Source of the DNA: Halobacteriovoraceae bacterium
Lineage (GTDB): Bacteria > Bdellovibrionota > Bacteriovoracia > Bacteriovoracales > Bacteriovoracaceae
NCBI GenBank assembly: GCA_963719505.1
Contig: CAVRCF010000002.1
Span: 32,001-96,000 of the forward strand
DNA: 64,000 bases
Direction of reading: 5' to 3'
This document shows, piece by piece, positions 7,022 through 55,131 of the stretch. How positions within the stretch are numbered: the first letter of the stretch is position 1; each line of letters opens with the position of its first letter. The translations under genes were made by a program, and so were the position numbers. The notes below the pieces were generated by a model. It saw nothing but the letters and a program-made list of their open reading frames with translations. It was not told where the DNA came from and made no database searches.

Positions 7022-7295
7022 GAAATCATAGAGAGTTTTATCTTTCGTTCGGTTCATATAGATGCTTTACTTTCAACACAGTGTCAGTCTTTCTATCGGC
7101 TATTAGTATGATCATAAAACTCTAGTTTTCACACTGAATTACTCTATATTGAAGTGTTCATTGATAGCTTAATGTTTAGTTATAGCTTTTATTAAGCATA
7201 GCTCTGGACTGCGGTCGTAATATCGGAGTCCAACATACTTATTTAAAGCCCTGAAAATAGGTCAATTCTTAAATCTGATATAATCAATTTAGGAG

Positions 7296-17151: not shown

Positions 17152-18388
17152 TGCAGTAGTCACGACTTGCGTTTACAAAACGCTCTCAGTCAAAGCTAAT
17201 TTTTATTGTACAGAGATCTCATCACCTGTACTTTTGTTATCGTAAACCATCTCTCCATACTTTAGAACTCCTTCGGTAAAAGTTTCATAAGGAGTTCTCC
17301 CTTTGCACCTCTTTCCTTGATTCGTTCTTTCAAAGTTATAGATCTTCATGAAATCGTCTAAGTCTTTCTGCATTTGATCTAGGCTTTTATAGAGGGTCTT
17401 TCTAAAAGCAACACTATAAAATTCAGCCTGAATCGTTTGATTCAGCTTCTCTACGGCTCCATTTGTTTGGGGATGTCTCACCTTGGTTCTACTGTGTTCA
17501 ATATCGTTAAGGTGAAGAAAAAGCTGATAGTGGTGTTGTGTTTTTACTCCACAGTACTCTCGACCGTTGTCTGTTAAAACTCTCAGAACTGAGATCGCAT
17601 GCTCATCAAAGAATGGAAGAACTTTACTGTTAAGAAAGTCCGCTGCGACTGTTTGGGTTTTATCAAGATAGAGTTTTGCAAAGCCGACATTTGAATAAGT
17701 ATCGATTCCCGTTTGCTGATAAATTTTTCCAACACCTTTGATGTACCCTACGTAGTAGGTGTCTTGAGCAAAAAGGAACCCACTGTGGTGTGTTTCAATT
17801 TCTCCATGTGCCTCTTTCTCGAGCTTTTGATCTTCTAATGCTTTAACTTGAGATTCTGTCAAAATGTTCTTCTCGTTTTTAGACCACTCTTCAAGTCTTT
17901 TAAGGCGGAGTTTTTTGTTCTCGATTTGATGACGAAGCCATACACTTCTCACGCCACCTGGACTAATCAAGATACCGGCTCTTTTAAGCTCGTTAGAAAC
18001 TCTTACTTGTCCATGAGTAGGATTTTCTAGGGCATAGTCTAGGATCGATTTCTCTGTTTCTGGGGCACAGCGATTGGCCATTCTCGGGCCTCGTCTAGTC
18101 TTCTGAGTAAGTCCTTCAAGGCCTTCTTCTTTAATCGCTGTTTTAATGTCGTAGTAATGTTGTCTGCTCACACCCATTTGTTTGCAAGCTTTTGAAATGT
18201 TCATCATCGTGTCAGCAAAGTCTACTATGCTAAGTTTCCGATTAATGAGATACTGTTGTTGAGTCATGTGTTTCTCCTTTTTGTTAAAACTGTTTTGTAG
18301 TAATTACAATTTTAACTGAGAACGCATGACTCAAAAATTACCGGCAATCTTTAGTCAAGTGTTGTAAATGCAACTCGTGTTACTTCCA
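17152..18388 (-). mobile_element. IS481-family insertion sequence (1237 bp)
   Basis: TG...CA ends. Imperfect IRs (TGCAGTAGTCACGACTTGCGTTTACAA vs TGGAAGTAACACGAGTTGCATTTACAA). Direct repeat GTTAAGT at 17145-17151 and 18389-18395. Confidence 0.9.
17203..18267 (-). CDS. IS481-family transposase
   Basis: N-terminal HTH (NISKACK.MGVSR..YY), QDT, LTDNGREYCG and PQTNG.VE DDE motifs. Confidence 0.95.
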   Translation of the reverse strand: MTQQQYLINRKLSIVDFADTMMNISKACKQMGVSRQHYYDIKTAIKEEGLEGLTQKTRRGPRMANRCAPETEKSILDYALENPTHGQVRVSNELKRAGILISPGGVRSVWLRHQIENKKLRLKRLEEWSKNEKNILTESQVKALEDQKLEKEAHGEIETHHSGFLFAQDTYYVGYIKGVGKIYQQTGIDTYSNVGFAKLYLDKTQTVAADFLNSKVLPFFDEHAISVLRVLTDNGREYCGVKTQHHYQLFLHLNDIEHSRTKVRHPQTNGAVEKLNQTIQAEFYSVAFRKTLYKSLDQMQKDLDDFMKIYNFERTNQGKRCKGRTPYETFTEGVLKYGEMVYDNKSTGDEISVQ

Positions 18389-24972: not shown

Positions 24973-24999
24973 TAAAGAATTCTTCGCATTAACCGATAA
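24973..24999 (+). promoter_or_regulatory. sigma28/FliA-type promoter overlapped by an inverted repeat
   Basis: TAAA-N15-ACCGATAA; IR TTCGCATTAAC (24983-24993) / GTTAATGCGGA (25009-25019). Confidence 0.65.
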
Positions 25000-25025
25000 G
25001 TACACATTGTTAATGCGGAGGTTTT

Positions 25026-26339
25026 ATTACAAAGCTACTACTTACCATTTTAGGACTAACTTTATCTATTATTTCTTATTCAAAGGAATATATCTCCAAA
25101 TATAATATCTCAGACGTCAAGAGTTCGATTTTAAAGAATTATGCCGTTCAAACTCCTTTGTGTAGAGATAGGGTAGAGTTGTTTTTAGATTCTGTTGATG
25201 AACTAGAAAGTGAGAATATTGTATACTCTCAATCTAGGGAGGTGGGGGCGGGCACCTTTGATTGTTCAAGTGCAGCTAAATGTATCTGGAATAAGTTCAG
25301 TGCTAAAAACAAGTCATTGAATACATATGGCATGAACACCTCTTCACAAATGATAGAGAAGGCTCACAGTAATTCTTCGTTAACTATAATAGGTCAAACT
25401 AAACAAAAAGTTGGTTCTAATACTTACACTGGTTTTGAAACTAAAATTGGATCAACTATTGCATATCAGGGAAGTAGTGGAGGGCATGTTTTCATAATGG
25501 TCGATCCGGCCAATTGTATTGCCTTCAATGTCTCTGTGGATCACGATTCATCAAAATCTTCTTATCAAGGCTACGTAGATAAGGCCAATAAGAATGATTC
25601 ATCAAAGCTAATTAAAATAAAAGGATGCAGTAATGGATTTGTTTACGCTTTTAACAAAACAAACTCTGGAAATGGACATTTTTTTGGAGCTAAGTCAGCG
25701 CCAGGCGGAGACATTGTCTCAAGCATTGTAAACTTCATTCCAACATCTCTCGATGAGTGCTTAAAAAAAGTTGCCGATGATCATTGTGAAGACTGTAAGC
25801 CTTCCTTGAGGGGGCATGAAACGAGCAATATAGACAATCTTAGTACCAATATAGAAAATATAATCTCTAATTCAGGATCAAAATCTTATAAAGTGAAGGC
25901 TGGAGATACGATGTATTCACTTTCTCGTAAATTTGGCTTCAAGAAGACTGAAGATTTTATGAATGAGGTTGGAAAAAAAAGTAATAACTTATCTGCTGGA
26001 GAACTTTTAATCTTTAAAAGTGCTGAGAGCTCAGTTGATCCAGAAAAAGATGATTCTTGGATGAATAGACCGATTGGTATAGCAAGCAATTCTAGAAAGC
26101 CATCCGAATCACCGTCTAAGGTTTATGTAAGTGGTGTTGAATTTGATGAGGTTATACCGGACACTCTTGCAGATGGATTGACCCAAAATGCGTCTAATTG
26201 CTCAAAAATGTGTATTAATAGCTATCTTGGTGTTTGTGTTAGGGAGTCTTCAAGGAGCCAGACAAGGTCTCAAAAATATTCTTTATGTGTAAGAACTGAT
26301 AGTGATAGGTTTTTATTTGTTGATGAAAGGGAGTTGTGA
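25026..26339 (+). CDS. Secreted NlpC/P60-like (papain-fold) peptidoglycan endopeptidase + LysM + novel C-terminal Cys domain
   Basis: Frame is open upstream of 25158 and encodes a signal peptide (ITKLLLTILGLTLSIISYS). Y.....FDCSS (Cys), GHVFIM (His), LysM YKVKAGDTMYSLSRKFG...L.AGE.L. Confidence 0.7.
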   Translation: MTKLLLTILGLTLSIISYSKEYISKYNISDVKSSILKNYAVQTPLCRDRVELFLDSVDELESENIVYSQSREVGAGTFDCSSAAKCIWNKFSAKNKSLNTYGMNTSSQMIEKAHSNSSLTIIGQTKQKVGSNTYTGFETKIGSTIAYQGSSGGHVFIMVDPANCIAFNVSVDHDSSKSSYQGYVDKANKNDSSKLIKIKGCSNGFVYAFNKTNSGNGHFFGAKSAPGGDIVSSIVNFIPTSLDECLKKVADDHCEDCKPSLRGHETSNIDNLSTNIENIISNSGSKSYKVKAGDTMYSLSRKFGFKKTEDFMNEVGKKSNNLSAGELLIFKSAESSVDPEKDDSWMNRPIGIASNSRKPSESPSKVYVSGVEFDEVIPDTLADGLTQNASNCSKMCINSYLGVCVRESSRSQTRSQKYSLCVRTDSDRFLFVDEREL

Positions 26340-27907
26340 TGAGGACATTAATAGTGATGATTTTTTTTAGCCTCATTGTTGTTGCTGGAGAGTATTCACA
26401 TATTGAGTACGTGGTAAAGAGTGGTGACACACTTTACAGTTTGAAAAATAAACTGGGATTCGGAAGTGTGAATTTGTTAAGGAGTGCCATGAATCCAACG
26501 CCTAATTCTGATTCAATAAAAGTGGGGGATGTTTACATTATAAAGCTCGATTATGATGCAGACGCAGACTTAAAGAGTGTAGTGCACTTATCCACCAAAT
26601 CCTTTCTAGAAATTGATCCAACCAATGATTTGGTAGGTAAATCATGTGTGTCTAATAATAATTCTCCAAATAATCATGAAGTTTCCGGTTTTTATGTCAA
26701 ACCCAGACAGTTTGTTGGAGGCGGATGCAACTTTTATCCAACCAGTGTCAGCGACATAAGTCTAAGAGATGTGATTGCGCAGCTAATAGTGTCTACGTCT
26801 AAGGACAAGAAGTATAAAGAAAACGCTTCAGCATCACAAGACCTTGCTACTCAGATTGTGATAATGTCAAAATATGCAGGAGTTGATCCCAGAGTAATAT
26901 CAGCGCTTATTCTCAAGGAGAGTTTTTTTGTAGATGCCGCAACGGCTCAAATGCAATTCTCTATTGGTAAAACAACAGGTATGGGGCAAGTGAGTTCTGA
27001 TATACAATCCCAAGTTAAAAATCTACCCAATACTGAGGTCCTTCTCAATCAAGTCAAATCAGAGCTAGGTAATTTAAAAATTAATTACGATGTCTTTAAT
27101 TCTATTATGGCTTTCAAAATAAAAGAGGCAGATATTTTAGATGCTAGCCCTTCCAGAGCTTTTTATTTAAAGAAATATAGTTCGTCAGATGAATCCATAT
27201 TTGGTCGCTTTAATGGAACAAATGAATTGAAAGTTGATTGCAATTCAGATCACTTAGTGGGAGCCACAATAGGTTCATACAACGCAAATAAAGAAGTCCT
27301 TCAAGGTGGGAGCGAAAAATTTTCGCGTGCTGCTTTTTACACTCATGATGTTTTAAGCGTAGCTCAAGGTTTAATGGGATATCCATACTCCCCAGAGAAT
27401 GTTTTTAAAAGGGATAAAATTCCAATATTGAAAAATGTGAAAAGGCTTTCTGGAGATTTTGAATCTAGTAAATACATTGAAACCTCTAGTCTTGTATTAA
27501 AACCTGCAACACCTAAAAATAAAATAAAGAATGATTTAAAATCAGTCAGTAAAAATAATGATTCTGAACAAAATAATGCTTGGATGCATAAACCTATAGT
27601 TGATTCTAGAAAAGATGATTCTTGGATGCATAGGCCTATAGTTGACTCAAAAAACTTTAACGACGGCTCAGTTCGTGTGATGGTCGGGCGGGAAAATCTT
27701 GAGATTGTTGAGGGGGACGACTTGATGGAGGGGCTAGCTGTCTATCAGAAGGCGGATGACTGTCAGAGTCAATGCTATAATAGATTTATGGGGAGATGTG
27801 TTGATGTATCTTCTCGATTTAATTCTTCACATGTACAGGTTGGCATTAATAAGTATGGCTATTGTAGAAAAACAAACTCAGGCTTCTTTGTTTTTACCAA
27901 AGATTGA
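26336..27907 (+). CDS. Secreted LysM + SLT-type lytic transglycosylase + novel C-terminal Cys domain
   Basis: Signal peptide; LysM YVVKSGDTLYSL...IKVGD; SLT motifs GVDPRVISALILKES.F, GMGQV and GSYNA; GTGA overlap with the upstream gene. Confidence 0.75.
   Translation: MMRTLIVMIFFSLIVVAGEYSHIEYVVKSGDTLYSLKNKLGFGSVNLLRSAMNPTPNSDSIKVGDVYIIKLDYDADADLKSVVHLSTKSFLEIDPTNDLVGKSCVSNNNSPNNHEVSGFYVKPRQFVGGGCNFYPTSVSDISLRDVIAQLIVSTSKDKKYKENASASQDLATQIVIMSKYAGVDPRVISALILKESFFVDAATAQMQFSIGKTTGMGQVSSDIQSQVKNLPNTEVLLNQVKSELGNLKINYDVFNSIMAFKIKEADILDASPSRAFYLKKYSSSDESIFGRFNGTNELKVDCNSDHLVGATIGSYNANKEVLQGGSEKFSRAAFYTHDVLSVAQGLMGYPYSPENVFKRDKIPILKNVKRLSGDFESSKYIETSSLVLKPATPKNKIKNDLKSVSKNNDSEQNNAWMHKPIVDSRKDDSWMHRPIVDSKNFNDGSVRVMVGRENLEIVEGDDLMEGLAVYQKADDCQSQCYNRFMGRCVDVSSRFNSSHVQVGINKYGYCRKTNSGFFVFTKD
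27579..27648 (+). repeat. 42-bp-period tandem duplication encoding WMHxPIVDS; a third copy lies in the upstream gene at 26045-26063
   Basis: CTTGGATGCATAaaCCTATAGTTGAtTC (27579) vs CTTGGATGCATAggCCTATAGTTGAcTC (27621). AAAAGATGATTCTTGGATG is identical at 26045 and 27610. Confidence 0.9.
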
Positions 27908-28612
27908 AATTTCACTAGGATTTATTTATTAAAAAGGGGGGGGGATTTTTGTTATCTGACTTTTTTTCATTTAAGTCTAAACTCAAGTAGATTTAAAGCA
28001 AAAGTGGTATTCGGTTCGTTTAGTGAAGGAGTGGTATAGGGAAGGGATCTGGATAAATTCTTAACTCTTCTAATGGATTATTTGAAACCCATCATGCTTA
28101 GATGCAATTTAATTTCTGTTGATGATAGCCTCGCAAGTTCTCATTGTGACTTCTTCAAAAAATGGTAAAAACACTTTTCTAAAGCAATAATTCTCGCTGC
28201 TTTTATAGCAGATTGAATTCACTTTGTTCGTGAATACTTAATTGACACTAATACAAATTTATTATCTACTAGAGTTGACGTTACCTTTTTACCTTTTTAA
28301 AATGGAGAAGTGCCTGGTGTGAAACCATCATAAACATCCTGAATCACGTAGAATTAGTGAGTATTATTTTCGAAAAATAAAGTAAGTTGCGACTGAAAAA
28401 TCTGGGAGAGTCAATAATCAAATTTGTGTTGCGAAAGTTAGGCATGCTTTTTATCTGTTTCGAGCTTTTATAGCGGTGGAAGTGGGTTGGTTATTGACCT
28501 AGTATAGATTCAATTTCTTAAAGTGGTGTCAGAAATAAATATACTTTTGATAACTATAATCGCACGCAGTAACTGTAATATTTTATGTAGAATAATTCCA
28601 AAGGTTTAAGTT

Positions 28613-29764
28613 TTGAGATTTATTAAGCGTCGTAGTAAGGTTGAAAAAACCATTATAGTTATTTCGGATGTTCATTTGGGAGCCGGCTCTTTATTAAATG
28701 GAAAGCGAAATAATCTAGAGGATTTTGATTCTGATCAGGAGATGGTTGAGTTTTTCAACTATTACTCTTCAGCTGAATATTTAAGCTCTGAGGTTGAACT
28801 CATTATTAATGGCGATTTTTTGGACTTACTGGCTGTTCCTTTTGTGCCTTACTTTGATGATGAGTTTTGGAGCGAGAAGGCGAGTCTCGCAAAGTTGGAT
28901 ATCATTATATCAGCTCATTCTGAAGTTCTCGATGCACTAGTGAGTTTTGTAGCTTCGAAAAATAAAAAATTAACATATATTATTGGAAATCACGATGCTG
29001 AATTAATTTTCGACAGTCTTCAAGATAGATTTCTTGCATTGTTCAATGACAAAGATAGGGGCAAGATCAACCTTTCAAAAACTAACAAGGCATTTAGCCC
29101 TAGTCTTGGAGTTTACCTCGAACATGGTCATCAGTATGAGCTTGCTCATAGCTTTGAGCCAGATGAATCAATAGTTGAAACGACTAAGGGGGAGAAATAC
29201 TTTATTCCATCTTGGGGGGCATATTATGTTACCCATGTAATTAATAAATACAAAAGCGAGCGAGATCATGTTAACGCTGTAAGGCCTATTAAGAATTTCC
29301 TTATTCATGGATTAATATTTGATACTTTTTTTATTTTGAGATTTCTCATTGCAAATGCTTATTATTTTGTCATGGTTAGATTCCTTTACTACTACCGGTT
29401 AAGAATCGGAATTCGGAAAGTACTACAAGAGAGCCTCAAACAGTTAAAACTTTTTGAAGACTATGAAACAATCACCAGAGAGTTTTTTCAGCGAAACCCC
29501 GAGGCAAAAGTACTTGTCGTTGGACACACCCATGAACCAACATTGAGAGAGTACGCTGATGGGACTACTTTTATCAATACTGGAACTTGGACAAAAATGA
29601 TTAATCTTGAACTCAATACTAAAAAAGATGATTCAGCACTGACATATGCAAAGATACAAATTACGAAAAAAGATTATGAACTAAGTGAATTTCACGAGTT
29701 TGTATCGGTAGAGCTTAATAAGTGGGAACCTAAAACAGATCTCCCTTATTCACAATATTCTTAA
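28613..29764 (+). CDS. Calcineurin-like metallophosphoesterase (LpxH-like superfamily)
   Basis: SDVHLG, NGDFLD, GNHD, EHGH and GHTH motifs. Confidence 0.85.
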   Translation: MRFIKRRSKVEKTIIVISDVHLGAGSLLNGKRNNLEDFDSDQEMVEFFNYYSSAEYLSSEVELIINGDFLDLLAVPFVPYFDDEFWSEKASLAKLDIIISAHSEVLDALVSFVASKNKKLTYIIGNHDAELIFDSLQDRFLALFNDKDRGKINLSKTNKAFSPSLGVYLEHGHQYELAHSFEPDESIVETTKGEKYFIPSWGAYYVTHVINKYKSERDHVNAVRPIKNFLIHGLIFDTFFILRFLIANAYYFVMVRFLYYYRLRIGIRKVLQESLKQLKLFEDYETITREFFQRNPEAKVLVVGHTHEPTLREYADGTTFINTGTWTKMINLELNTKKDDSALTYAKIQITKKDYELSEFHEFVSVELNKWEPKTDLPYSQYS

Positions 29765-30228: not shown

Positions 30229-30255
30229 TTATCGGGGGAGGTTTTATAAGCTTTA
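30229..30255 (-). promoter_or_regulatory. sigma28/FliA-type promoter (transcript would be almost leaderless)
   Basis: Minus strand TAAA-N15-CCCGATAA ending 6 nt before the ATG at 30222. Confidence 0.6.
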
Positions 30256-34599: not shown

Positions 34600-35274
34600 T
34601 CAAAGGGGAGGACATATATTTTTAACAAACTTTTCATAAAAGAAATCTAAATCTTTCATCACATGATCCTTTAAAAGCATCTGAGATGTATCAATATTCT
34701 TTTTAAAAATATCAATTGAATATTCTTTAAGGAGTTCATCGGCTATAGGAAAGAAGCTTAGGTGCCACTTCTCCACGTTTACTCCGCCTAAGTCTTTGTC
34801 GTAAGGTCTAAAGAATGGACAATTATTTTGAAGCCTTTCATCTAACCATCTGTGAAAGTCAAACAGAACTCCACCTGGATCAGACTCAGACGAGACAAGT
34901 TTTAGCTCGTCTTTGCTAATCTTATTAGCATCGTAGACATCGAAATCAGATCCCCAGTGATGCCTTGATGCCCCTGGAATAGCAGACCAGCGCATGATTG
35001 ACTTAAGCACTTCATCTTGTGAAAGGTCATCAAAAACTAACTCATCTCCATTTGTATCAAGAAGCTTTCTTTTACCCAAAGCTTTTGCATTCCAAATTTT
35101 TTCTTGAGCGTCGAAGCTTCTGAAGGAGCTAACAATTTGGAGATCTGCCCCAATATCAGCCTTCGCTTGCTTTTGTAGATCTATAAAAGAGGGGAGAGCA
35201 TCTTCGTGCAAATAAAAATCATTATACTTAATTAATTTATTATTCGCTCTTCCTGTGAGTAGATTAAAATTCAT
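34600..35274 (-). CDS. M15-family D,D-carboxypeptidase (VanY-like)
   Basis: SSFRS...Q, PGASRHHWG.D.D (SxHx6D) and EKWH Zn-binding motifs. Confidence 0.9.
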   Translation of the reverse strand: MNFNLLTGRANNKLIKYNDFYLHEDALPSFIDLQKQAKADIGADLQIVSSFRSFDAQEKIWNAKALGKRKLLDTNGDELVFDDLSQDEVLKSIMRWSAIPGASRHHWGSDFDVYDANKISKDELKLVSSESDPGGVLFDFHRWLDERLQNNCPFFRPYDKDLGGVNVEKWHLSFFPIADELLKEYSIDIFKKNIDTSQMLLKDHVMKDLDFFYEKFVKNICPPL

Positions 35275-37471
35275 CTAGATTCCATTAATTTGAGTCCCTG
35301 AAGCTTCGTCAACACTCGATTTTCCAGACTCATCAAAGAGTCTTCTAAGAGCACTTCGTTGATAACGAATACTTAAGATTTTAAAAATATCTTGAGAGGG
35401 GTTGTTATTAATATCGCCTTTGATCTCATACTCTTTATCCATTACACTTGCGACATCATCAACTTTTATATCAGAGCCTGAGTCCCCGCCAAAGTCTAGG
35501 TCAAAGTCGTTATTTTGACTTTTTCCTTTATTGAGATCTTTCCCTCTTTTGAAGTTCGGGCCCTCTTTTTTTGCAATTTCTTTTTTCGCATCATTCATTA
35601 TTTTTTCTAGATTAGTGTCAGCAAGTGTAGGAGCGGCGAGACCCATATCAGCGGAGCTTAAGCCTTGAGGGAACTGTTTATTAACAAAACCAGCATGATT
35701 TTTTTGAAGTTGAGCTGAGATCTTGTCAGCTTTTTTCAAGATATCAGAATATTTTTTATCCTCTTTAAGATCGTCAGCTTTTTTCCTGATGGCCAAAACT
35801 TTGTTTCCAAAAGAGCCGTTATTGAAACTACCTTGTTCTAGACCGCCGGAGTTGAGAGAATCATAGCCGCCAGCAAAAGGGGAGGCGAAAGAGGATAGTG
35901 AACCTGTGTTTACCTGAAAGTTTCCAGAGAAAGTTGCACAATTATCTTGCCCACTTTTATTTTTCTTTCTTTTACAATTACACTCAAGATCGAGTTTGTT
36001 TTGTTTATCGACGCATCCACTATGATTTTGGGCGAGCATATTATTAGTTTCATTCCAATTGAATTTATTATTTTTAAATTTTTCTTTAAAACAATCTTTT
36101 CCTTCACATAGTTTAATTCCTTCCGTTCCTCCGGAGTTCACAAAGTCAGATTTAATTTGCCTAATGGCTTCAATTCTTTTTTCAAGCTGTTCTGCATTTT
36201 CTTTAGCTTTTTTGTGAACGATAAAAGAGTAAGTTCCAAAAGCTAACCCCATGGCAATTCTTGTTATAGGCCACGTAAAAGCTTTACTGATGATATCTGT
36301 TTGTTTATCGAACTCGGGCTTTACAGCACTTGATGCAGCCTTCGCAGCTTCTGCTCCACCAGCCGCTGCGCCACCACCGCCACCGCCGCCACCTTTAAAG
36401 AAAGTAGCAAGCATGGGAAGTATTGAAGTTATTATTGAGAGGAAACCTCCACCGGACTTTTGTTGAGCTGGCTGTTGCTGAGGGTTCGTTTGAGCATGTA
36501 AAGTTGGTAAGAGATTAGAATATATAATTCTTAAAACTGATTCTTCGACTTCCTCTGGTGTAATATTTTCTAGATTGTTAAGGTGGTCAAAGCGTTTATC
36601 GATAACTGACAGCCTTTTTACCTGATCAGAAAGGCTGGCATCGTTTAATTTAGATGTGTAGAGAAGATCATTTGATTGTGGTTCAATCGCTGAAGTTGTT
36701 GAAGGCGTTGACTGACCTTCCACAATAGTACATTTATTCGACAATGCTGTCGTACCAAGACTAGCACCATCCTGAGCAGCTTCTACAATCCCTGCAACGA
36801 CTGCTGCTCCATAGAGCCCTGTTGCAACGAGGTGAGCAGCCTTTCTGACATTTTCAGATTTGAGCGAACTCTCTTCAAGCTTTATTAAATAGTCAAAAGC
36901 TAAAACTTGATTATTATCCATATTTTCATAATTGCCCTGTTCGCTTTCTGGGTCGTAAGACTTTACATTTTCTTCATATTCTTCAGCGGCTTTTTTAGTT
37001 CGTCTTTGATGACCAAAGTAAGATATGGCTTCACCTGTAATCCCTGCGATTCCCGCACCCATTAAAAGTTTCATTGATAAAGAACTACATTTGATGGCAT
37101 TTTTATTTTTGAGGATATAAAAGCCCGCAACGGAAGTCATCACAAGTGGAATTAAACTTCGGTCTGAAGCGCCTCTAAAAAATCCGCCTTTTATTTCGTC
37201 TTCATCTGCTTTGATTTCATCGACACCAATTCTTGCAGCATTTTTGTAACACTCTTGCTGAGCTGATCCTGACAGTCCTTCACATTTTCTTGGCCCCGTC
37301 TCTTGCCGCGATTGATTCGTCAGTCATCTGACACTGACCTTTAGAGGCATCCCAAGCCCAACCAGACTCACAGCTTTCAACAGGTGTGTCTGAGTCTTGA
37401 GCAATTGCTATACTCGGCCCCAGGGGCTGCATAAAAATACAAAGTGCGAGTAAAAGTGATGTCAGTTTCAT
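35275..37471 (-). CDS. Giant secreted Cys-rich protein with hydrophobic helices, poly-Gly tract and C-terminal IFxxLSxRY motif; frameshift near 37285-37295 joins ORFs 37280-37471 and 35275-37143
   Basis: Signal peptide lies in the small upstream ORF. The main frame is open upstream of 37143 (KCEGLSGSAQQECYKNAA...), and removing one base fuses the two. Confidence 0.75.
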
Positions 37472-37504
37472 AATGGTTCCAGTTTTAGTTTATTGTTTTT
37501 AAAC

Positions 37505-37531
37505 TTTTCGGCTAACTAGCAGAAATCATTA
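37505..37531 (-). promoter_or_regulatory. sigma28/FliA-type promoter
   Basis: Minus strand TAAT-N15-GCCGAAAA upstream of the ATG at 37471. Confidence 0.6.
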
Positions 37532-37720
37532 ACTTTTATATATTATAGGCCCTAAACAAGCCCAATTTAAAAACTTGTCTGCAGTCAAATTCAAAATCAC
37601 GCTTAAGGTATTGAATTTAAAAGATTAATTCTGATATTTATCGAAGATTCTTGTATGGAAATTCGAATTTCAGTGACCCAAATTAATGGCAAATTCAACA
37701 ATATTTGATACGTTTTAGGA

Positions 37721-38287
37721 ATGAAGCTAATTATTCTCATCATTTGTTTTTCTCAACTGGCTTGGTCTTTGGATCTTAAGGTGGGAGATATCTTACTGCA
37801 GCCTCTGCACTGTTACGCCTGCAATCTTATTGAAGCTCAAACGCAAAGTGAATACTCTCATATTGGCGTTGTTATAAAAAAAGAGAATCAGGAAGTTTTT
37901 GTGGCTGAAGCATTTGGAAAAGTGAAAGTTGTGAGCTTTGATGAGTTTAATAAAAAAACTCAAAAAGGGTTAAGAATAGAAGTTTTAAGACCACGCTATG
38001 TCCATTCAGAAATTTATGCCACTTATAGGGAACATTTTGATTCTAAACCATATGATTCAAATTTTTTGTGGAGCGATGATAAAATTTATTGTAGTGAACT
38101 CGTTCAAAAATTATTTCATCAACTCAATATGACTGTTCCAAAAGCGAAGCCCATGACTTTTGATATTAATCGAGCACTTTGGGACAAGTACTTCAGAGGA
38201 AACACCCCCGAAGGACATCTTGGGATTTCTCCAGCAGACTTTAAAACGTCCAATCTTTACAAGGAACTTGGATTCTATGAAAATTAG
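37721..38287 (+). CDS. YiiX/YebB-like permuted papain-like NlpC/P60 hydrolase (C92), secreted
   Basis: L..GDIL, YSHIG, AEA, PYD..F and IYCSELV motifs (His precedes Cys). Confidence 0.85.
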   Translation: MKLIILIICFSQLAWSLDLKVGDILLQPLHCYACNLIEAQTQSEYSHIGVVIKKENQEVFVAEAFGKVKVVSFDEFNKKTQKGLRIEVLRPRYVHSEIYATYREHFDSKPYDSNFLWSDDKIYCSELVQKLFHQLNMTVPKAKPMTFDINRALWDKYFRGNTPEGHLGISPADFKTSNLYKELGFYEN

Positions 38288-39245
38288 TCTCTCTAAAAAA
38301 GAGCTAGAATTGAAAGTGAATTGGAAGCTTTCTAGAAATGAAACTCTTAAAAAAGAAAATTATTTTATTAGCATTGAAGATCAAGGACACACTGGAATTG
38401 GAGAAATCGCTCCAAATATTCGCTACGGTGAAACACCTGAAGTCATTGAGAGTAACTTTAAAACTATAGAAAATCTAAAAGTCGATTTAGATAACTTCTC
38501 CGAGCTAGTCCAGGGCTTGGATCTTTGTCATTCCTTTTTATTTGGCTTTGAGTCTGCTCTAAATCATCTTGTTGCAAAGGTAGAAAATAAACCCATCCAC
38601 CAACATTTAAATCTTAGTGCTCCAGTTGAAATCGCAACTTCTTATTCTGTTCCGATAATGGAAGAGAGTGAGCTTGAAAGCTATTTAAATAAAATTGAGA
38701 GGTTTCATTATATAAAGGTTAAGGTTAGTCGGCACAATGCTAAAAGCTTCGTTTATGCCATAGCGGCACTAACGAATAAGCCCCTTCGGATCGACGGTAA
38801 CGAAGCCTGGGATTCTTTGGATGAGTACTTAGAATTTGAAGAATCGGTAAAGAATATAAATATCCAGTTCATTGAGCAGCCGCTTAAATCCTCGATGGTC
38901 GAGGACTATATAAAACTTAAGGCAGTTTCGAAGTTTAAAATTATGGCCGATGAATCAATTGAGTCAGATGTTGATATGGAACTCATTGCGAAGCAGTTTC
39001 ACAGTGTAAATATTAAATTAATGAAGGCTTCTGGTTATAATAACGCGATAAAGCTTTTAAAAGAGGCAAAAGCCTTTGGTTTAAAAACGATGATTGGCTG
39101 TATGATTGAGACGAGTCTAGGAATATCTAGTGCCATTAATATTTCTAGTCTTGGAGATTATTTTGATTTAGATGGGTCGCTTCTTTTAAAAAACGACCCA
39201 TACAATTTGATTATAGAACAAAAAGGTCTATTAAAACTTAATTAA
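38277..39245 (+). CDS. Dipeptide (L-Ala-D/L-Glu) epimerase, enolase superfamily
   Basis: GIGEIAP..RYGET, KVK, DGNE, EQP, ADES, NIKLMK, GCMIE and DLDG motifs; start revised to the ATG at 38277. Confidence 0.85.
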   Translation: MKISLSKKELELKVNWKLSRNETLKKENYFISIEDQGHTGIGEIAPNIRYGETPEVIESNFKTIENLKVDLDNFSELVQGLDLCHSFLFGFESALNHLVAKVENKPIHQHLNLSAPVEIATSYSVPIMEESELESYLNKIERFHYIKVKVSRHNAKSFVYAIAALTNKPLRIDGNEAWDSLDEYLEFEESVKNINIQFIEQPLKSSMVEDYIKLKAVSKFKIMADESIESDVDMELIAKQFHSVNIKLMKASGYNNAIKLLKEAKAFGLKTMIGCMIETSLGISSAINISSLGDYFDLDGSLLLKNDPYNLIIEQKGLLKLN

Positions 39246-39712
39246 TGCTCGTGTCCACCAGCTCCATGCGCGTGACCATGAGATTTCTCTTCTTCTGTTG
39301 CAGCTCTCTTTTCAGTGATCTCAACATCAAAGTGTAATTCAACACCTGCCATTGGATGATTTCCATCGACATGAACATCATCATTTTCAAGGCTAACAAC
39401 AGTAAAAACCGGAGCGTTTGGCTCTTCGTTTACTTGGAACTGATCACCAAGTTTGAGATCTGCTCCCTCTGGGAACTGGCTTCTTTTAACCGTTATTTTT
39501 AAATCATCAATCACTGGACCATAACCATTTTCAGGGTCGATCGTAATATTCTTTTTATCACCAACTTCCATTTTTACAACTTCGCTCTCAAGTCCAGGAA
39601 TAATATGACCGCTACCAACAAGAAACAGAAGAGGTGCTTGGTTTTCAGAGGAATCAATAAGATTTCCTTCTTTGTCTTTTAGTGTGTAATGAAATCCGAT
39701 TACGTCGCTCAT
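39242..39712 (-). CDS. slyD: FKBP-type peptidyl-prolyl isomerase SlyD
   Basis: HYTL...G..IDSS....PL.FL.G.G.IIPGLE, DGNHPMAG, His-rich tail. Confidence 0.93.
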   Translation of the reverse strand: MSDVIGFHYTLKDKEGNLIDSSENQAPLLFLVGSGHIIPGLESEVVKMEVGDKKNITIDPENGYGPVIDDLKITVKRSQFPEGADLKLGDQFQVNEEPNAPVFTVVSLENDDVHVDGNHPMAGVELHFDVEITEKRAATEEEKSHGHAHGAGGHEH

Positions 39713-39723
39713 AGTTTTTCCTT

Positions 39724-40599
39724 TTAAATTATTGGAGTAAGGCAGATATGCTCATCGCCAACTCGATTGATTATCTCTTTAATATTTAACTTTCTAAAAG
39801 TTTTGCTGATTTTAACTATCGTACTATTAGTGGTATCAAATCTATCTTCATTTTTCAAAGGCAACTCAAAAATATCACAAAACTTTTCCCAAAAATGTTC
39901 TTCGACGCAGGCCAGTGCGACGTATTTATCATCTTTTGTTGTATAAATATTGTAGCAGGGAAGAGCTCCGTTATGGAGAAACCTTGTCATACCGGAGCTT
40001 TCCAAGTTTTCGCTCCAAAAGAGATCTAAGGTTTGCTGAGCACTTCGATCAAGAAAAAGATCGATAATCTGCGTCTGTCCTAATTCGTGAAGCTTTAACA
40101 TTCCGGCAAGGGCGGTCAATGCAATCTTTTGACCATATATAATTCCAGCAATGGGAAGGTAGGGAGGGTCTATTTGATCGGAATCAAACTCCTCTAAATA
40201 AATCTTAAAACTTTTAGATTTCGCCAGTGCATTGAGATCATGCATTGGACTCAAGTCTACACTTCCTCCAACTTTTATTAACACCTTCTTATTCAAATCA
40301 AAGTTGGTTTCGCTAAAAGTTGAAGGGGCAATAATAATATCGTTGTTTTTAATTAAGTCTTTTAAGCTTTCATCTGTGAAAGACACTTTTGTTTTTTGAT
40401 CGTTAAAATTTTTAAACCACTCATTAAAGAGAAGATCATTCGCTTTTTCAAAAGCATCTTTTTTTTCCAAGGGAGTGGCTTTCGTTACGACCGCTCCAAG
40501 CATCTCTAGCTCTTTCGTTGCAAGGGGACCGGGAAGTCTCTGTGAGAGATCTAAAATTCTTAAATTATTCAGAAGGTTTAACATCAAAAATTTCCTCAA
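39724..40599 (-). CDS. CoA-transferase family III (CaiB/BaiF/AMACR-like), short divergent member
   Basis: [14 protein letters not shown]...L..LGA.V, HDLN and PCYNIY.TKD..YVAL.C.E..FW motifs. Confidence 0.8.
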
Positions 40600-42604
40600 A
40601 CTCTTTTAGTGTCGAACCTTGAAGCTCCACCTCATTGTAAGTTCTAATTTGCCACTTCTCATTATTTTCCTCAGTGAAGTTTAGAGCAAATCGAACTGAG
40701 AAGTGAGGGTTGTATTTGGAAAAGATATGATCTTTTAACCATGTTGTTGGAACTGTGATCTCTCTATAAGCTTCATCTGGGTAGGAGAGACTTCTGAGCG
40801 TCTCTCCAAACATAAGAGGGTTTTGAAGACTGAGGTGAGTAAGGGTATCTATTGTTTTCACCACTTCATTAAGTCTCTCTTGTCCCTCTTCTAAGTGCTT
40901 CCATTTTCTTAAGAGGCCTATAAAGATGGCCAGTGACGATTTATAGTTTTGATCAAAGATTGGTGTGTGAATATTTTTATATTGATGAGAGTCTGAAAAA
41001 CTTAGGGGCCTTGTCATGAAGCGACCCTCTTCGTAAAACTCTCTCATGATGTAGTCGATTGTTTTGTCCCCTGACTCTTTAAAGGTCTTGTTCCCTGAGA
41101 TCTCATAAAACCTAAACTGACACTCACAAAACATCACATAGTTTTCAAAAAGTGCAAGGTGAGTCTCTCTTGTTGTGGAGGTAATAATTTTTGATTTACC
41201 ATCAACGCTTTTGATAAATGTTTTGTGGATTGATGTGATTGTCTGGTTAAGAAGTTCTGAAGCTTGCAGGGCAATGGAGTCGACTTTACAATACTGAACA
41301 ACATCCACAAGGGCCGAAATCATCTGGAAGTTCCAGCTTGCAACCCCTTTACTGTCCGTCGCTGGAGGGATTCTCATTTTTCTGGCCTCTGCAAGAGCCT
41401 GTCTAACTGCTCTGACGTCATTCCACCCCTCTGGAGAATAATAGTCTTCCTTGTACTTGTTATTGAGACTGATAACGTTGAGATCTCTTTCGAAATTTCC
41501 TTTTTCAGTTATATCAAACCACTTTAAAAGGGTATCCATCTTGTCTGTGAGATTTTCATCAAAGTCGACAATGGCATCCATGAATTCATTCTTGGTGAAA
41601 GTGAAATAAAGTCCTTGAACATTTTCACTATCTGAATCTTGCCCAGCAAAAAAGAATCCTTCATCTGAGAGCATCTCAACTTTAAGATAGTCAAGCGTTT
41701 GAATAATAGCATCAAAAATTAGAGGTGAAGGATAGATCAGACTTGTTTTCGCCAAAAGTTTTAAAAGGGCTGCTTGGTCGTAAAGCATTTTTTCAAAATG
41801 AGGAACTTTCCAGTCGCTAGAGACCGCGTAGCGATGAACTCCTCCTCGAGCGTGGTCATAGAGTCCACCCATAAGCATGTGCTCAATACTTTTAATGATG
41901 TGCTTACCATTTTCTTCTGGAATCATTCCTTCAAGCATATGTTCAATGGCCCATTCATAAAAAGCGAATTGGGGAAACTTGGGCTCAGTACCGTAGCCTC
42001 CATTTTCATTGTCCTGGTAATTCTTAATAGCATTTAAGATTCCTGCGGGGGATGGATAATGACCTTCGAACTCAACTCTCTCAGTGATTTTTGGATCCTG
42101 AGATATTGCATCTGTTAGATCTTTGGCGTTGGCTTCAACTGTGGCGAGATCGTCTTTAAAAGCTTGGTCTAAATTTTTTATGACTTCCATAAAAGAAGGA
42201 GTTTCGTTAACGGCAGTTTTTGGAAAGTATGTCCCGATGAAGAAAGGTAGAAAGTTTGGAGTGAGAAATGCATTGAGAGGCCATCCTCCTTTGCCGTTCA
42301 TCACTTGACTTGCCAGTTGAAAATACTGATCCAAGTCGGGGAGTTCTTCTTTATCTACTTTTATGCAGATAAAGTTGTCATTGAGGAACTCCGCTGTTTT
42401 CTTATCCTCAAAAGTCTCTTCGTTCATAACAGCACACCAATGTGAACCACTGTAACCAATAGATAAGAAAATAGGTTTATTTTCATCTTGAGCTTTTTGA
42501 AGGGCTTCTGGCCCATACGGCATCCAATGGACGGGGTTATTTTCGTGTCGCAGAAGGTATGAACTTTTCTCTATTTGCAAACGATTATGATTTATTGAAC
42601 TCAT
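40565..42604 (-). CDS. Thioredoxin-domain protein of the YyaL/SSP411 family
   Basis: NRL..E.S.YL..H..NPV.W, GGWPL..FLTP and PHFEKMLYD motifs. Confidence 0.92.
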
Positions 42605-42720
42605 TAAGACTCCTAATGATGAAAAAACAGTATTTTACGCCCCTATGATCTGTAATAATGTAAGGATTTTCAATAAATTTATTTACTTTGATGCCTATCT
42701 TGGGCTAAAACCCCCAACTT

Positions 42721-43509
42721 ATGAGAAATACACAAGTAATTACCGGACGCAAGAGATCTGAATTTTCTCGATTTGCTGCACTGAGTACAATTTTACGAAC
42801 AACCGAGGTTCAAATCTGTATCGGCCTAATTATCATAGGCCTAGTGACGATCTTTGCCAAAGAGCATATTGCAACCTCTCAACTCAATACTATTCAACCT
42901 CCTTCCTATTCTTTCTCTGATGTGAAGTTTGGTTTTGCTGATGCTGGAGTGACTCTAGAGAGTCGTCTTAATCTTGAGCACTCTCTTTTGATGTCTTTGC
43001 CTGGAGATATTAGAGGGAGAGCGAAGCCTTTTATCAAAGCAATTTTAAAGATCAGTGAGATTTATAGCCTTGATCCGATCTGGGTCTCTTCTGTTGTTTG
43101 GACAGAAAGCCACTTTAAGCCCCGTGCAAATAGTCCTATTGGGGCCAGAGGTCTTATGCAGCTAATGCCTACGACGAAAGCTTATATTTATAAGAAACTC
43201 AAAAAACGAAAAATGTACCTTATTGTTGAGAAACCTAATTTTAGACTCAGTGAGTTTTTTGATTTTGAAATCTCAAAAGAGGAAGAAAAGTATTACGCCG
43301 ATCGTCTCGTTAACTTGGAGATTGGAATCTTCTACTTAAAGCGCTTGCTTAAAAGATTTGATGGCCAACATAGGATTGCGACTATTGCTTACAACATGGG
43401 ACCGACTTGGACCCGAAGAAAGCTTCGAGAAAACTATCCTTTAGGCTCAAAAAATAATTATTTAGCAAAAGTCACAAGAGCTTATGACCATATTTTAAAA
43501 AGTATCTAA
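42721..43509 (+). CDS. SLT-domain lytic transglycosylase, membrane-anchored
   Basis: LDP..V..V..TES.F.P.A.S..GARGLMQLMP.T and AYNMGP motifs. Confidence 0.9.
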   Translation: MRNTQVITGRKRSEFSRFAALSTILRTTEVQICIGLIIIGLVTIFAKEHIATSQLNTIQPPSYSFSDVKFGFADAGVTLESRLNLEHSLLMSLPGDIRGRAKPFIKAILKISEIYSLDPIWVSSVVWTESHFKPRANSPIGARGLMQLMPTTKAYIYKKLKKRKMYLIVEKPNFRLSEFFDFEISKEEEKYYADRLVNLEIGIFYLKRLLKRFDGQHRIATIAYNMGPTWTRRKLRENYPLGSKNNYLAKVTRAYDHILKSI

Positions 43510-50153: not shown

Positions 50154-51697
<1,544 letters not shown>

Positions 51698-51926
51698 TTA
51701 AGGATATAAATTATCCAGGTCAATACTATTAAACATTTTGGTTCTTTCTCCTCTCTATTTTCTTTATATTTTTAATATAAAAAATTTCTATAAAATTAAT
51801 TACAATCTTCAATTAACTTGGAGTTTTTAATAATCTTATTCTTTGACAATTACATAACAGGATCAGATAGAAGACGAGAACATAGTAAATTAACGATACA
51901 TTTTCGAATGTATCGCCCAAAAAACT

Positions 51927-54853
<2,927 letters not shown>

Positions 54854-54984
54854 TTTAATGTTTTTTGGGAATGTTAATTTACTATGTTTGAATCTTTTAT
54901 CTGATTTTGTTTTGTAATTGCAAAAGCGACGTAGCTGTCGTAAAAGAGCTAAGTTAAAAATATTGCTTAAATTGTTATACGATT

Positions 54985-55101
54985 TGGGTGTGTTTATAGC
55001 GCAGGGGAAACACCTAGTTACATCTCGAACCTAGAAGTTAAGTCCTGTTGCGGCGAAAGTAGTGCATGGGCGACTGTGTGTGAGGTTAGCAAAATGCACC
55101 C
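54985..55101 (+). rRNA. rrf: 5S rRNA
   Basis: Terminal stem GGGTGTGTTT / AAATGCACCC, ACACC...CGAAC...GAAGTTAAG, position after the 23S. Confidence 0.9.
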
Positions 55102-55131
55102 TTTAATTTTTCTCTTCGGGGAAAGATATAT

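Follow-up and report, generated by a model that had tools for sequence, protein, structure and literature searches.

A two-gene cassette for putative secreted peptidoglycan hydrolases sharing a cysteine-rich tail in a Halobacteriovoraceae bacterium

Introduction

Predatory bacteria must breach the wall of their prey without lysing themselves, and to our knowledge what is known of the enzymes and controls of this step comes from a small number of Bdellovibrio proteins. The locus described here raises the question of whether two adjacent genes of a Halobacteriovoraceae bacterium encode a pair of wall-cutting enzymes with complementary activities, and what the C-terminal domain common to both might do. 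The two open reading frames (ORFs), named ORF-A and ORF-B, lie in a stretch of 64,000 nucleotides (nt), called the window below, which covers positions 32,001 to 96,000 of the forward strand of contig CAVRCF010000002.1 (GenBank assembly GCA_963719505.1); all coordinates are those of the window. An earlier note, made from the sequence alone, had interpreted the pair as a prey-wall-breaching module, in which a NlpC/P60-like and an SLT-like protein, both secreted and both with a LysM domain, end in homologous domains of a kind that was not recognized. Here, the gene structure, the individual domains, the promoter, the distribution and the genomic context of the pair were analyzed.

Results

Both ORFs are encoded on the forward strand, and the coordinates of their parts are collected in Table 1. 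The two genes overlap by one base within the sequence TGATG, in which the stop codon of ORF-A (TGA, 26337-26339) shares its last base with the start codon of ORF-B (ATG, 26339-26341), and an AGGGAG sequence stands 5 nt before this ATG. Given that the start codon of ORF-B overlaps the stop codon of ORF-A and is preceded by AGGGAG, the pair appears to be built for translational coupling, and the coupling of two genes at this place, proposed in the earlier note, was confirmed as far as it can be read from the DNA. The frames run uninterrupted for 441 codons (ORF-A) and 526 codons (ORF-B) in a genome with a G+C content (GC) of 37%, and the GC of the cassette (0.34-0.39) is similar to that of the genome (0.368). 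All of the motifs on which the earlier description relied are present in the translations, namely FDCSS (Cys80) and GGHVF (His154) in ORF-A, and LILKES (Glu195), GMGQV and SYNAN in ORF-B.

Table 1 Features of the cassette and of the wall-turnover genes downstream of it
Feature	Position	Strand	Details
Sigma28 (FliA)-type promoter-like site	24973..24999	+	TAAAG, N15, CCGATAA; found by pattern scan
ORF-A start region	25013..25028	+	ATG 25013 (other frame), GGAGG 25017-25021, T-run 25022-25025, in-frame ATT 25026
ORF-A	25026..26339	+	Frame open from 25014; 437 amino acids (aa) if the start is ATT 25026; from N- to C-terminus: hydrophobic leader, papain-like Cys/His domain, LysM, KDDSWMNRPI motif, Cys-rich C-terminal domain
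ORF-A catalytic-type domain	25143..25670	+	Residues ~40-215; candidate Cys80 (25263-25265) and His154 (25485-25487)
LysM of ORF-A	25887..26009	+	Residues 288-328
KDDSWMNRPI motif of ORF-A	26046..26075	+	
Cys-rich C-terminal domain of ORF-A	26118..26336	+	Residues ~365-437
ORF-B	26339..27907	+	522 aa from ATG 26339, GTG 26336 also in frame; from N- to C-terminus: signal peptide, LysM, SLT-like domain, duplicated motif, Cys-rich C-terminal domain
LysM of ORF-B	26408..26533	+	Residues 25-66
SLT-like lytic transglycosylase domain of ORF-B	26768..27409	+	Residues ~145-358; candidate catalytic Glu195 (26918-26920)
Tandem 13-aa repeat of ORF-B	27572..27652	+	NNAWMHKPIVDSR / KDDSWMHRPIVDSK
Cys-rich C-terminal domain of ORF-B	27665..27904	+	Residues ~444-523
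VanY-type D-Ala-D-Ala carboxypeptidase	34600-35274	-	
Permuted papain-like C92 amidase	37721-38287		
Enolase-superfamily MR_MLE protein	38160-39245		
Canonical SLT protein	42721-43509		

When the C-termini of ORF-A and ORF-B were compared by BLASTP, 38 of 102 positions were identical (37%, E-value 4e-14), which upholds the claim of homologous C-termini with four conserved cysteines. The four cysteines are invariant and are spaced C-x3-C-x7-C-x16/21-C. The homologous stretch is about 100 aa long including a linker and a motif, KDDSWM(N/H)RPI, which precedes the Cys domain in both proteins in nearly identical form, is tandemly duplicated in ORF-B (the 13-aa repeat of Table 1) and had gone unmentioned in the earlier note; the Cys-bearing part accounts for about 75 aa. 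At the DNA level, a run of 19 bases within the motif is identical between the two genes, and the remaining tail has diverged. Neither the KDDSWM motif nor the tail has a further copy in the same genome, where the motif was sought in all six frames and the tail was found only twice.

The tail could not be linked to a described family. No Pfam family matched either tail at E-values up to 10, the NCBIfam matches fell on the LysM parts and none on the tails, and the best row of a sequence-profile search of PDB with the tail was Tim9 (E-value 0.38), in agreement with the earlier statement that the domain is not recognized. An AlphaFold2 model of the tail, built from the two-sequence alignment, had a mean predicted local distance difference test score (pLDDT) of 47.8 and a predicted template modeling score (pTM) of 0.37; in it, a small beta module is made up by the last ~50 residues. 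The best Foldseek rows for this model were fibronectin type I (FnI) and von Willebrand factor type C (VWF-C) modules, with a non-significant E-value of 0.46. In the VIA comparison, 11 of the top 15 rows named FnI or finger modules (Z 4.5-3.1, root-mean-square deviation 1.5-2.9 over 39-47 residues). Since these scores are in the range of chance, the likeness was treated as a lead only. The FnI and VWF-C modules are animal extracellular domains and, though the last ~50 residues of the low-confidence model superpose on them, they have no sequence similarity to the tail; the cysteine spacing of the tail also differs from that of FnI modules. A complex prediction of the two tails scored 0.00 with the partner fold uncertain, which speaks neither for nor against binding between them.

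Each protein carries a single LysM domain. The LysM segment of ORF-A scored 20.8 bits with Pfam against a cut-off of 20.9 and matched the LysM of LytE in PDB with an E-value of 1.2e-6. For ORF-B, the Pfam score was 17 bits, under the cut-off, and 34 multi-LysM proteins matched residues 6-88 with E-values from 7e-16 to 9e-4. The segments of the two proteins are alike (12/18), and both belong to LysM (PF01476), though just under the cut-off that Pfam itself applies. Searches with the whole proteins returned LysM proteins only; the 63% coverage of one record (P0028) reflects an alignment with gaps to a protein of LysM repeats. Sequence searches of PDB gave either LysM matches or chance ones such as STN1 and Tim9. 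The weak Pfam scores, taken together with the LytE match of ORF-A and the multi-LysM matches of ORF-B, support the presence of LysM in both proteins.

The SLT motif ascribed to ORF-B fared differently with different methods, being supported by profile statistics but not by the curated family model. The Pfam SLT family gave no match for ORF-B at E-values up to 1 or for its central part at E-values up to 10. A scan of the whole genome with PF01464 (E-values up to 10) gave 10 stretches, none in ORF-B, and identified at least seven canonical SLT proteins. When residues 90-375 of ORF-B were searched against 300 other genomes of the phylum, weak matches (E-values of about 1e-3) were obtained to ORFs of 247-275 aa, which Pfam calls SLT (E-value 1e-8). 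Alignment of ORF-B with these Pfam-confirmed SLT ORFs by hhalign gave a probability of 82.6% and an E-value of 9.7e-6 over residues 164-205. A custom SLT profile was then made from the ORFs of 25 of the 30 Bdellovibrionota loci collected, with ORF-B excluded; of the five left out, three were near-duplicates, one was a fragment of 144 aa and one was an ORF of 482 aa. It was run without filters against the 6,256 frames of at least 80 aa in the genome. ORF-B ranked fifth of 6,256 (E-value 5.7e-7, 27.8 bits; domain E-value 5.6e-10), and the five other significant matches were all PF01464 proteins. The significant stretch is a helix ending in the catalytic-type ES (Glu195), where ALILKESFF of ORF-B aligned with TALIWRESNF of the Pfam-confirmed SLT proteins. 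The SYNAN region forms a second colinear stretch, which contributed 0.0 bits, and GMGQV sits between the two, the order of the motifs being read by eye. An Atlas feature search placed ORF-B at 0.91-0.92 to SLT clusters and served as a lead only. Altogether, ORF-B probably contains a very divergent family-1 SLT domain with insertions.

The catalytic-type domain of ORF-A is more remote from known families. The Pfam models for NlpC/P60 (PF00877) and CHAP (PF05257) did not match ORF-A at E-values up to 10, and a genome scan with PF00877, which had no match above cut-off anywhere in the genome, missed it as well. A search of residues 20-260 against the 300 other genomes of the phylum returned three relatives in 3 of these genomes (E-values 7e-12 to 4e-11), all from one genus of another family, with 38-39% identity over ~80 residues; in 20 further genomes of the phylum only weak matches were obtained, with E-values of 1.4e-4 or worse and many with internal stops. 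A scan of the GTDB species genomes led to the same three relatives (154 pattern matches, 3 confirmed). These relatives are stand-alone secreted proteins of 284-327 aa, and YSQ..DC (Cys80), GH.F..VDP..C (His154), DH and GC are invariant in all four aligned sequences. One of the relatives scored 13.3 bits with NLPC_P60 (cut-off 23; E-value 0.087).

In a structure model of the ORF-A domain, the Cys opens a helix (61-75) and the His lies in a strand (133-141, both in the numbering of the modeled piece); the model is of low confidence, with a pLDDT of 49.8 and a pTM of 0.55. VIA-align of this model against 48,161 PDB chains listed NlpC/P60, CHAP and other wall hydrolases in 23 of the top 30 rows, including MepS (the best row, Z 4.6), LytE, RipA/B, CwlO, SagA and CHAP endolysins. 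An Atlas feature search, again a lead only, placed the domain at 0.94 to NlpC/P60/CHAP clusters, with mostly viral clusters among its neighbors. Given the consistency of the VIA list, the conserved Cys and His, and the Atlas lead, a papain-like wall hydrolase of a very divergent NlpC/P60-CHAP kind is the best, if weak, reading of ORF-A. The NlpC/P60 likeness claimed earlier is backed by the conserved Cys/His pair and by a structural list dominated by wall hydrolases at weak Z scores, but not by a match to the Pfam family.

Both proteins would be secreted, judging from their N-termini. ORF-B begins with a clearly hydrophobic leader, MRTLIVMIFFSLIVVAG (hydropathy 2.74). ORF-A has the leader ITKLLLTILGLTLSIISYS (hydropathy 2.11), which begins at ATT 25026, 4 bases after GGAGG, and is absent with the first canonical start, TTG 25158. 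This TTG is the start used by the window's own database record (P0004, 393 aa), which therefore lacks the leader. Because the three relatives of ORF-A carry leaders at the same place, the annotated start probably leaves out part of the N-terminus. The nearby ATG 25013 is shifted by one base relative to the ORF-A frame across the TTTT run, so translation would begin either at the ATT or, through a real or assembly-derived 1-nt indel in the T-run, at this ATG.

The lack of a canonical start before the ORF-A leader, together with a divergence so large that no curated model matches the catalytic domains, would also fit a pair with decayed catalytic domains, acting as non-enzymatic wall-binding or adhesin-like proteins, with ORF-A perhaps a pseudogene with a broken start. 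We consider this explanation very improbable, since the candidate Cys, His and Glu are kept (Cys and His being invariant in the ORF-A relatives), the frames stay open over their full lengths at this GC, and both proposed starts have a good Shine-Dalgarno sequence in front of them.

To assess the promoter, sites of the sigma28 (FliA) type were defined as -35/-10 elements of the TAAA-N15-GCCGATAA type upstream of a gene. Such a site, TAAAG-N15-CCGATA, is located at 24973-24998 before the pair, as the earlier note had said. The pattern TAAA-N14-16-CCGATA occurs at three sites in the window against 0.39 expected, a number that was reached in 2 of 100 shuffles. Across the genome, TAAAG-N14-15-YCGATA was counted 37 times; the 60 permuted controls had a median count of 16 and reached at most 49. 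An ORF of at least 60 aa follows within 200 nt at 27 of the 37 sites (a share given without a control), and several of the ORFs behind these sites open with a signal-peptide-like sequence. One flagellin gene of the genome has a site of this type upstream (C1:449378), and two further flagellin genes have TTAAG/TAAAG-N14-15-GTCGA(T/A)A, as read by eye. No sigma28 site was seen upstream of the distant relatives of ORF-A and ORF-B. In B. bacteriovorus, the attack-phase consensus is TTAAG-N16-CCGATA, and of 140 promoters active in attack phase, 92 have such a FliA-type site (PMC3627812). The site before ORF-A is a credible putative promoter.

The two other sigma28-type sites of the window, at 30230-30255 and 7221-7245, are both on the reverse strand. 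The former, read from 30255 to 30230, stops 7 nt before the ATG of a gene for a 153-aa membrane protein (30222-29761), for which a near-leaderless transcript is expected; genome-wide, several sigma28-type sites stop 4-7 nt before a start codon.

The distribution of the cassette was assessed in sequence collections and in related genomes. A phmmer search with ORF-B against 1.84 billion representatives gave 35 matches at E-values of 0.001 or less, of which 34 fell on the LysM and the remaining one was ORF-A (residues 421-521). A profile of the two tails found only ORF-A among 737 candidates from a collection of 5.8 billion proteins (185-2000 aa). The tail had no match in forty relatives, and pattern matches to it in metagenome contigs (595) and in viral contigs (49) yielded no confirmed case. 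Among 236 genomes of the family, one gave a marginal match to the tail (E-value 0.005, in a 33-aa frame with two internal stops), which is roughly the number expected by chance and was treated as noise. Neither protein was matched in three genomes of the same genus (82-90% complete). The range of catalytic domains that the earlier note had hoped to find fused to the tail did not appear, as the survey returned nothing beyond ORF-A and ORF-B. Since the cassette was found in neither the three same-genus nor the 236 family genomes, it is, by these searches, a single-genome orphan and not a general module of the Bdellovibrionota.

The neighborhood of the cassette is only partly conserved. The metallophosphoesterase gene downstream (28613-29764) is conserved, with 74% identity in the nearest genome (G002), and it constitutes the shared synteny, joined in G002 by the next gene. 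Upstream of it, the gene content differs in all five relatives examined, which places the cassette in a variable region where many ORFs belong to no family. An rve-type transposase gene (17203-18267, reverse strand) lies 7 kb upstream, and the ORFs between it and the cassette have no Pfam or PHROG family; this suggests that the stretch between the transposase and the cassette is variable and island-like.

Such surroundings raise the question of whether the pair was acquired recently, as a cassette for lysis or antagonism brought by a mobile element or a phage, and encodes endolysin-like enzymes or contact-independent antibacterial toxins that lie outside the predation program. The orphan status of the pair in a variable region with few conserved neighbors, the transposase, the mostly viral Atlas neighbors of the ORF-A domain (a lead only) and a PHROG endolysin family matched at an E-value of 0.0011, on the LysM part only, would all fit this origin. 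However, none of 13 neighboring ORFs matched a PHROG family at an E-value of 0.001 or less, the viral contigs yielded no relative of the tail, the GC is like that of the genome, and the promoter type is native to it. The PHROG result gave no support to a prophage origin, and acquisition of this kind appears improbable to us overall.

Further features of the window lie downstream. The ~700 bp after ORF-B (27908-28612) contain no ORF of at least 60 aa and no Rfam match, and include ten consecutive G at about 27936-27945. Genes for wall turnover form a loose cluster at 34600-43509 (Table 1), and a complete ribosomal RNA operon (16S, 23S, 5S) is located at 50154-55102.

Discussion

Taken together, we read the locus as encoding two exported, LysM-anchored hydrolases that are expressed together, one directed at glycan and the other at peptide. 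The pair would belong to a motility or attack regulon, and the tails would bring both proteins to the same address or partner; we give this reading a probability of roughly 0.6. A two-gene operon would then produce two secreted modular peptidoglycan hydrolases specific to one species of predatory Bacteriovoracaceae-like bacterium. The papain-fold domain of ORF-A, followed by one LysM, is predicted to cleave stem peptides or the amide bond, and the SLT-type domain of ORF-B, preceded by one LysM, would cleave the glycan strand through Glu195. The shared module, consisting of KDDSWM.RPI and the beta-rich four-Cys domain of ~75 aa, would have arisen within the lineage by duplication or shuffling. 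Translational coupling would ensure that both enzymes are made together, and the sigma28-type promoter would place them in the motility or attack-phase regulon. By guiding the two enzymes to one place or partner, the shared module would most likely make glycan and peptide cuts coincide, probably in the prey wall at entry. The prey wall is a plausible target in view of the lifestyle, the promoter type and the lack of conservation.

Several observations weigh against this reading. Neither catalytic domain is recognized by any curated model (Pfam, E-values up to 10), and the genome scans with PF01464 and PF00877 miss ORF-B and ORF-A. The significant SLT match of ORF-B spans only ~59 residues around the ES motif. 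For ORF-A, the model reaches a pLDDT of 49.8, Foldseek with this model returned nothing at an E-value of 0.001 or less, and all VIA Z scores are 4.6 or lower, a range that the tool itself calls common. The tail model is likewise of low confidence (pLDDT 47.8), with no significant Foldseek or VIA match. ORF-A has no canonical start before its leader, so that the gene could be frame-shifted or its product not exported. The genome-wide enrichment of the sigma28 pattern is modest (37 sites, with a control median of 16 and up to 49 in a single control), and no finding ties the enzymes to the prey rather than to the predator's own wall.

The last point leads to the explanation that the two proteins are autolysins that remodel the wall of the predator itself, for the insertion of flagellum or pili or for the separation of daughter cells. 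The architectures, LysM with NlpC/P60 and LysM with SLT, are those of known autolysins (LytE/LytF, MltD), the LysM of ORF-A matches that of LytE, and the MltD model matches on the LysM part. A flagellin gene has a promoter of the same type upstream, and VanY, the C92 amidase and a further SLT protein are encoded nearby. Genes for a housekeeping task should, however, persist among relatives, and that the pair was not found in the three same-genus genomes (82-90% complete), nor the tail in the 236 family genomes, counts against own-wall remodeling. The genome is, moreover, already equipped with its canonical SLT proteins, at least seven in number. We thus regard autolysins as unlikely and continue to prefer a co-expressed pair directed at a common place.

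As for the tail itself, common localization is favored over heterodimerization, an export signal or auto-inhibition, roles that the data do not separate. A more specific proposal, which we put forward tentatively and with some doubt, is that the tail is a new kind of tag, serving either as an address that directs both cutters to the predator-prey contact or as a latency device that blocks their activity during passage through the predator's own periplasm, the KDDSWM motif being the docking or processing site.

Modular peptidoglycan hydrolases are a well-known kind of protein, and comparison with them shows where the pair departs from it. ORF-A resembles the LysM-containing NlpC/P60 D,L-endopeptidases (LytE/LytF/CwlS of B. 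subtilis and 4xcm of T. thermophilus) in combining LysM with a papain-fold Cys/His domain, and LytE and 4xcm came up both among the LysM sequence matches of ORF-A and in the structural list of its catalytic domain. Unlike the LytE type, ORF-A has the reversed order, with an N-terminal catalytic domain, a single LysM and no PF00877 match; it carries an additional Cys-rich C-terminal module, as well as extra conserved Cys pairs and a YSQ motif that are common only to its three stand-alone relatives. ORF-B resembles the family-1 SLT enzymes with LysM (the MltD type of E. coli, PF01464) in its aligned helix-ES, in GMGQ and SYNAN in the order of the family, and in the LysM. It differs from the MltD type in having no PF01464 match, a single LysM at the N-terminus, a Cys-rich tail and long insertions (~210 aa against 117 model positions). 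Relative to these families, the accessory module is new, and it is without detectable relatives in the collections searched.

Secreted wall enzymes, such as the DD-endopeptidases Bd0816 and Bd3459, the MltA-like Bd3285 and the lysozyme DslA, have also been described in B. bacteriovorus, and some of them act at prey entry (PMC3276566, PMC10127604, PMC7511926). The present pair is similar to these in that both are secreted peptidoglycan enzymes, known or predicted, of predatory Bdellovibrionota. The Bdellovibrio enzymes described in the cited abstracts belong to other families (PBP4-type, MltA-type and lysozyme), no sequence relation to the pair was seen, and they are not known to share a tail.

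Its occurrence in a single genome limits the general importance of the cassette unless relatives turn up. With its three relatives, the catalytic domain of ORF-A would define a small branch of papain-like enzymes that has not been described and so far counts four members. For the predator, the locus represents a compact case in which two complementary predicted wall-cutting activities would be made together and carry the same Cys-rich tail, one that had not been seen before. Should this tail prove to direct or restrain the two proteins, it would represent a new module for the control of muralytic enzymes, one that might also be of use in engineering targeted lysins.

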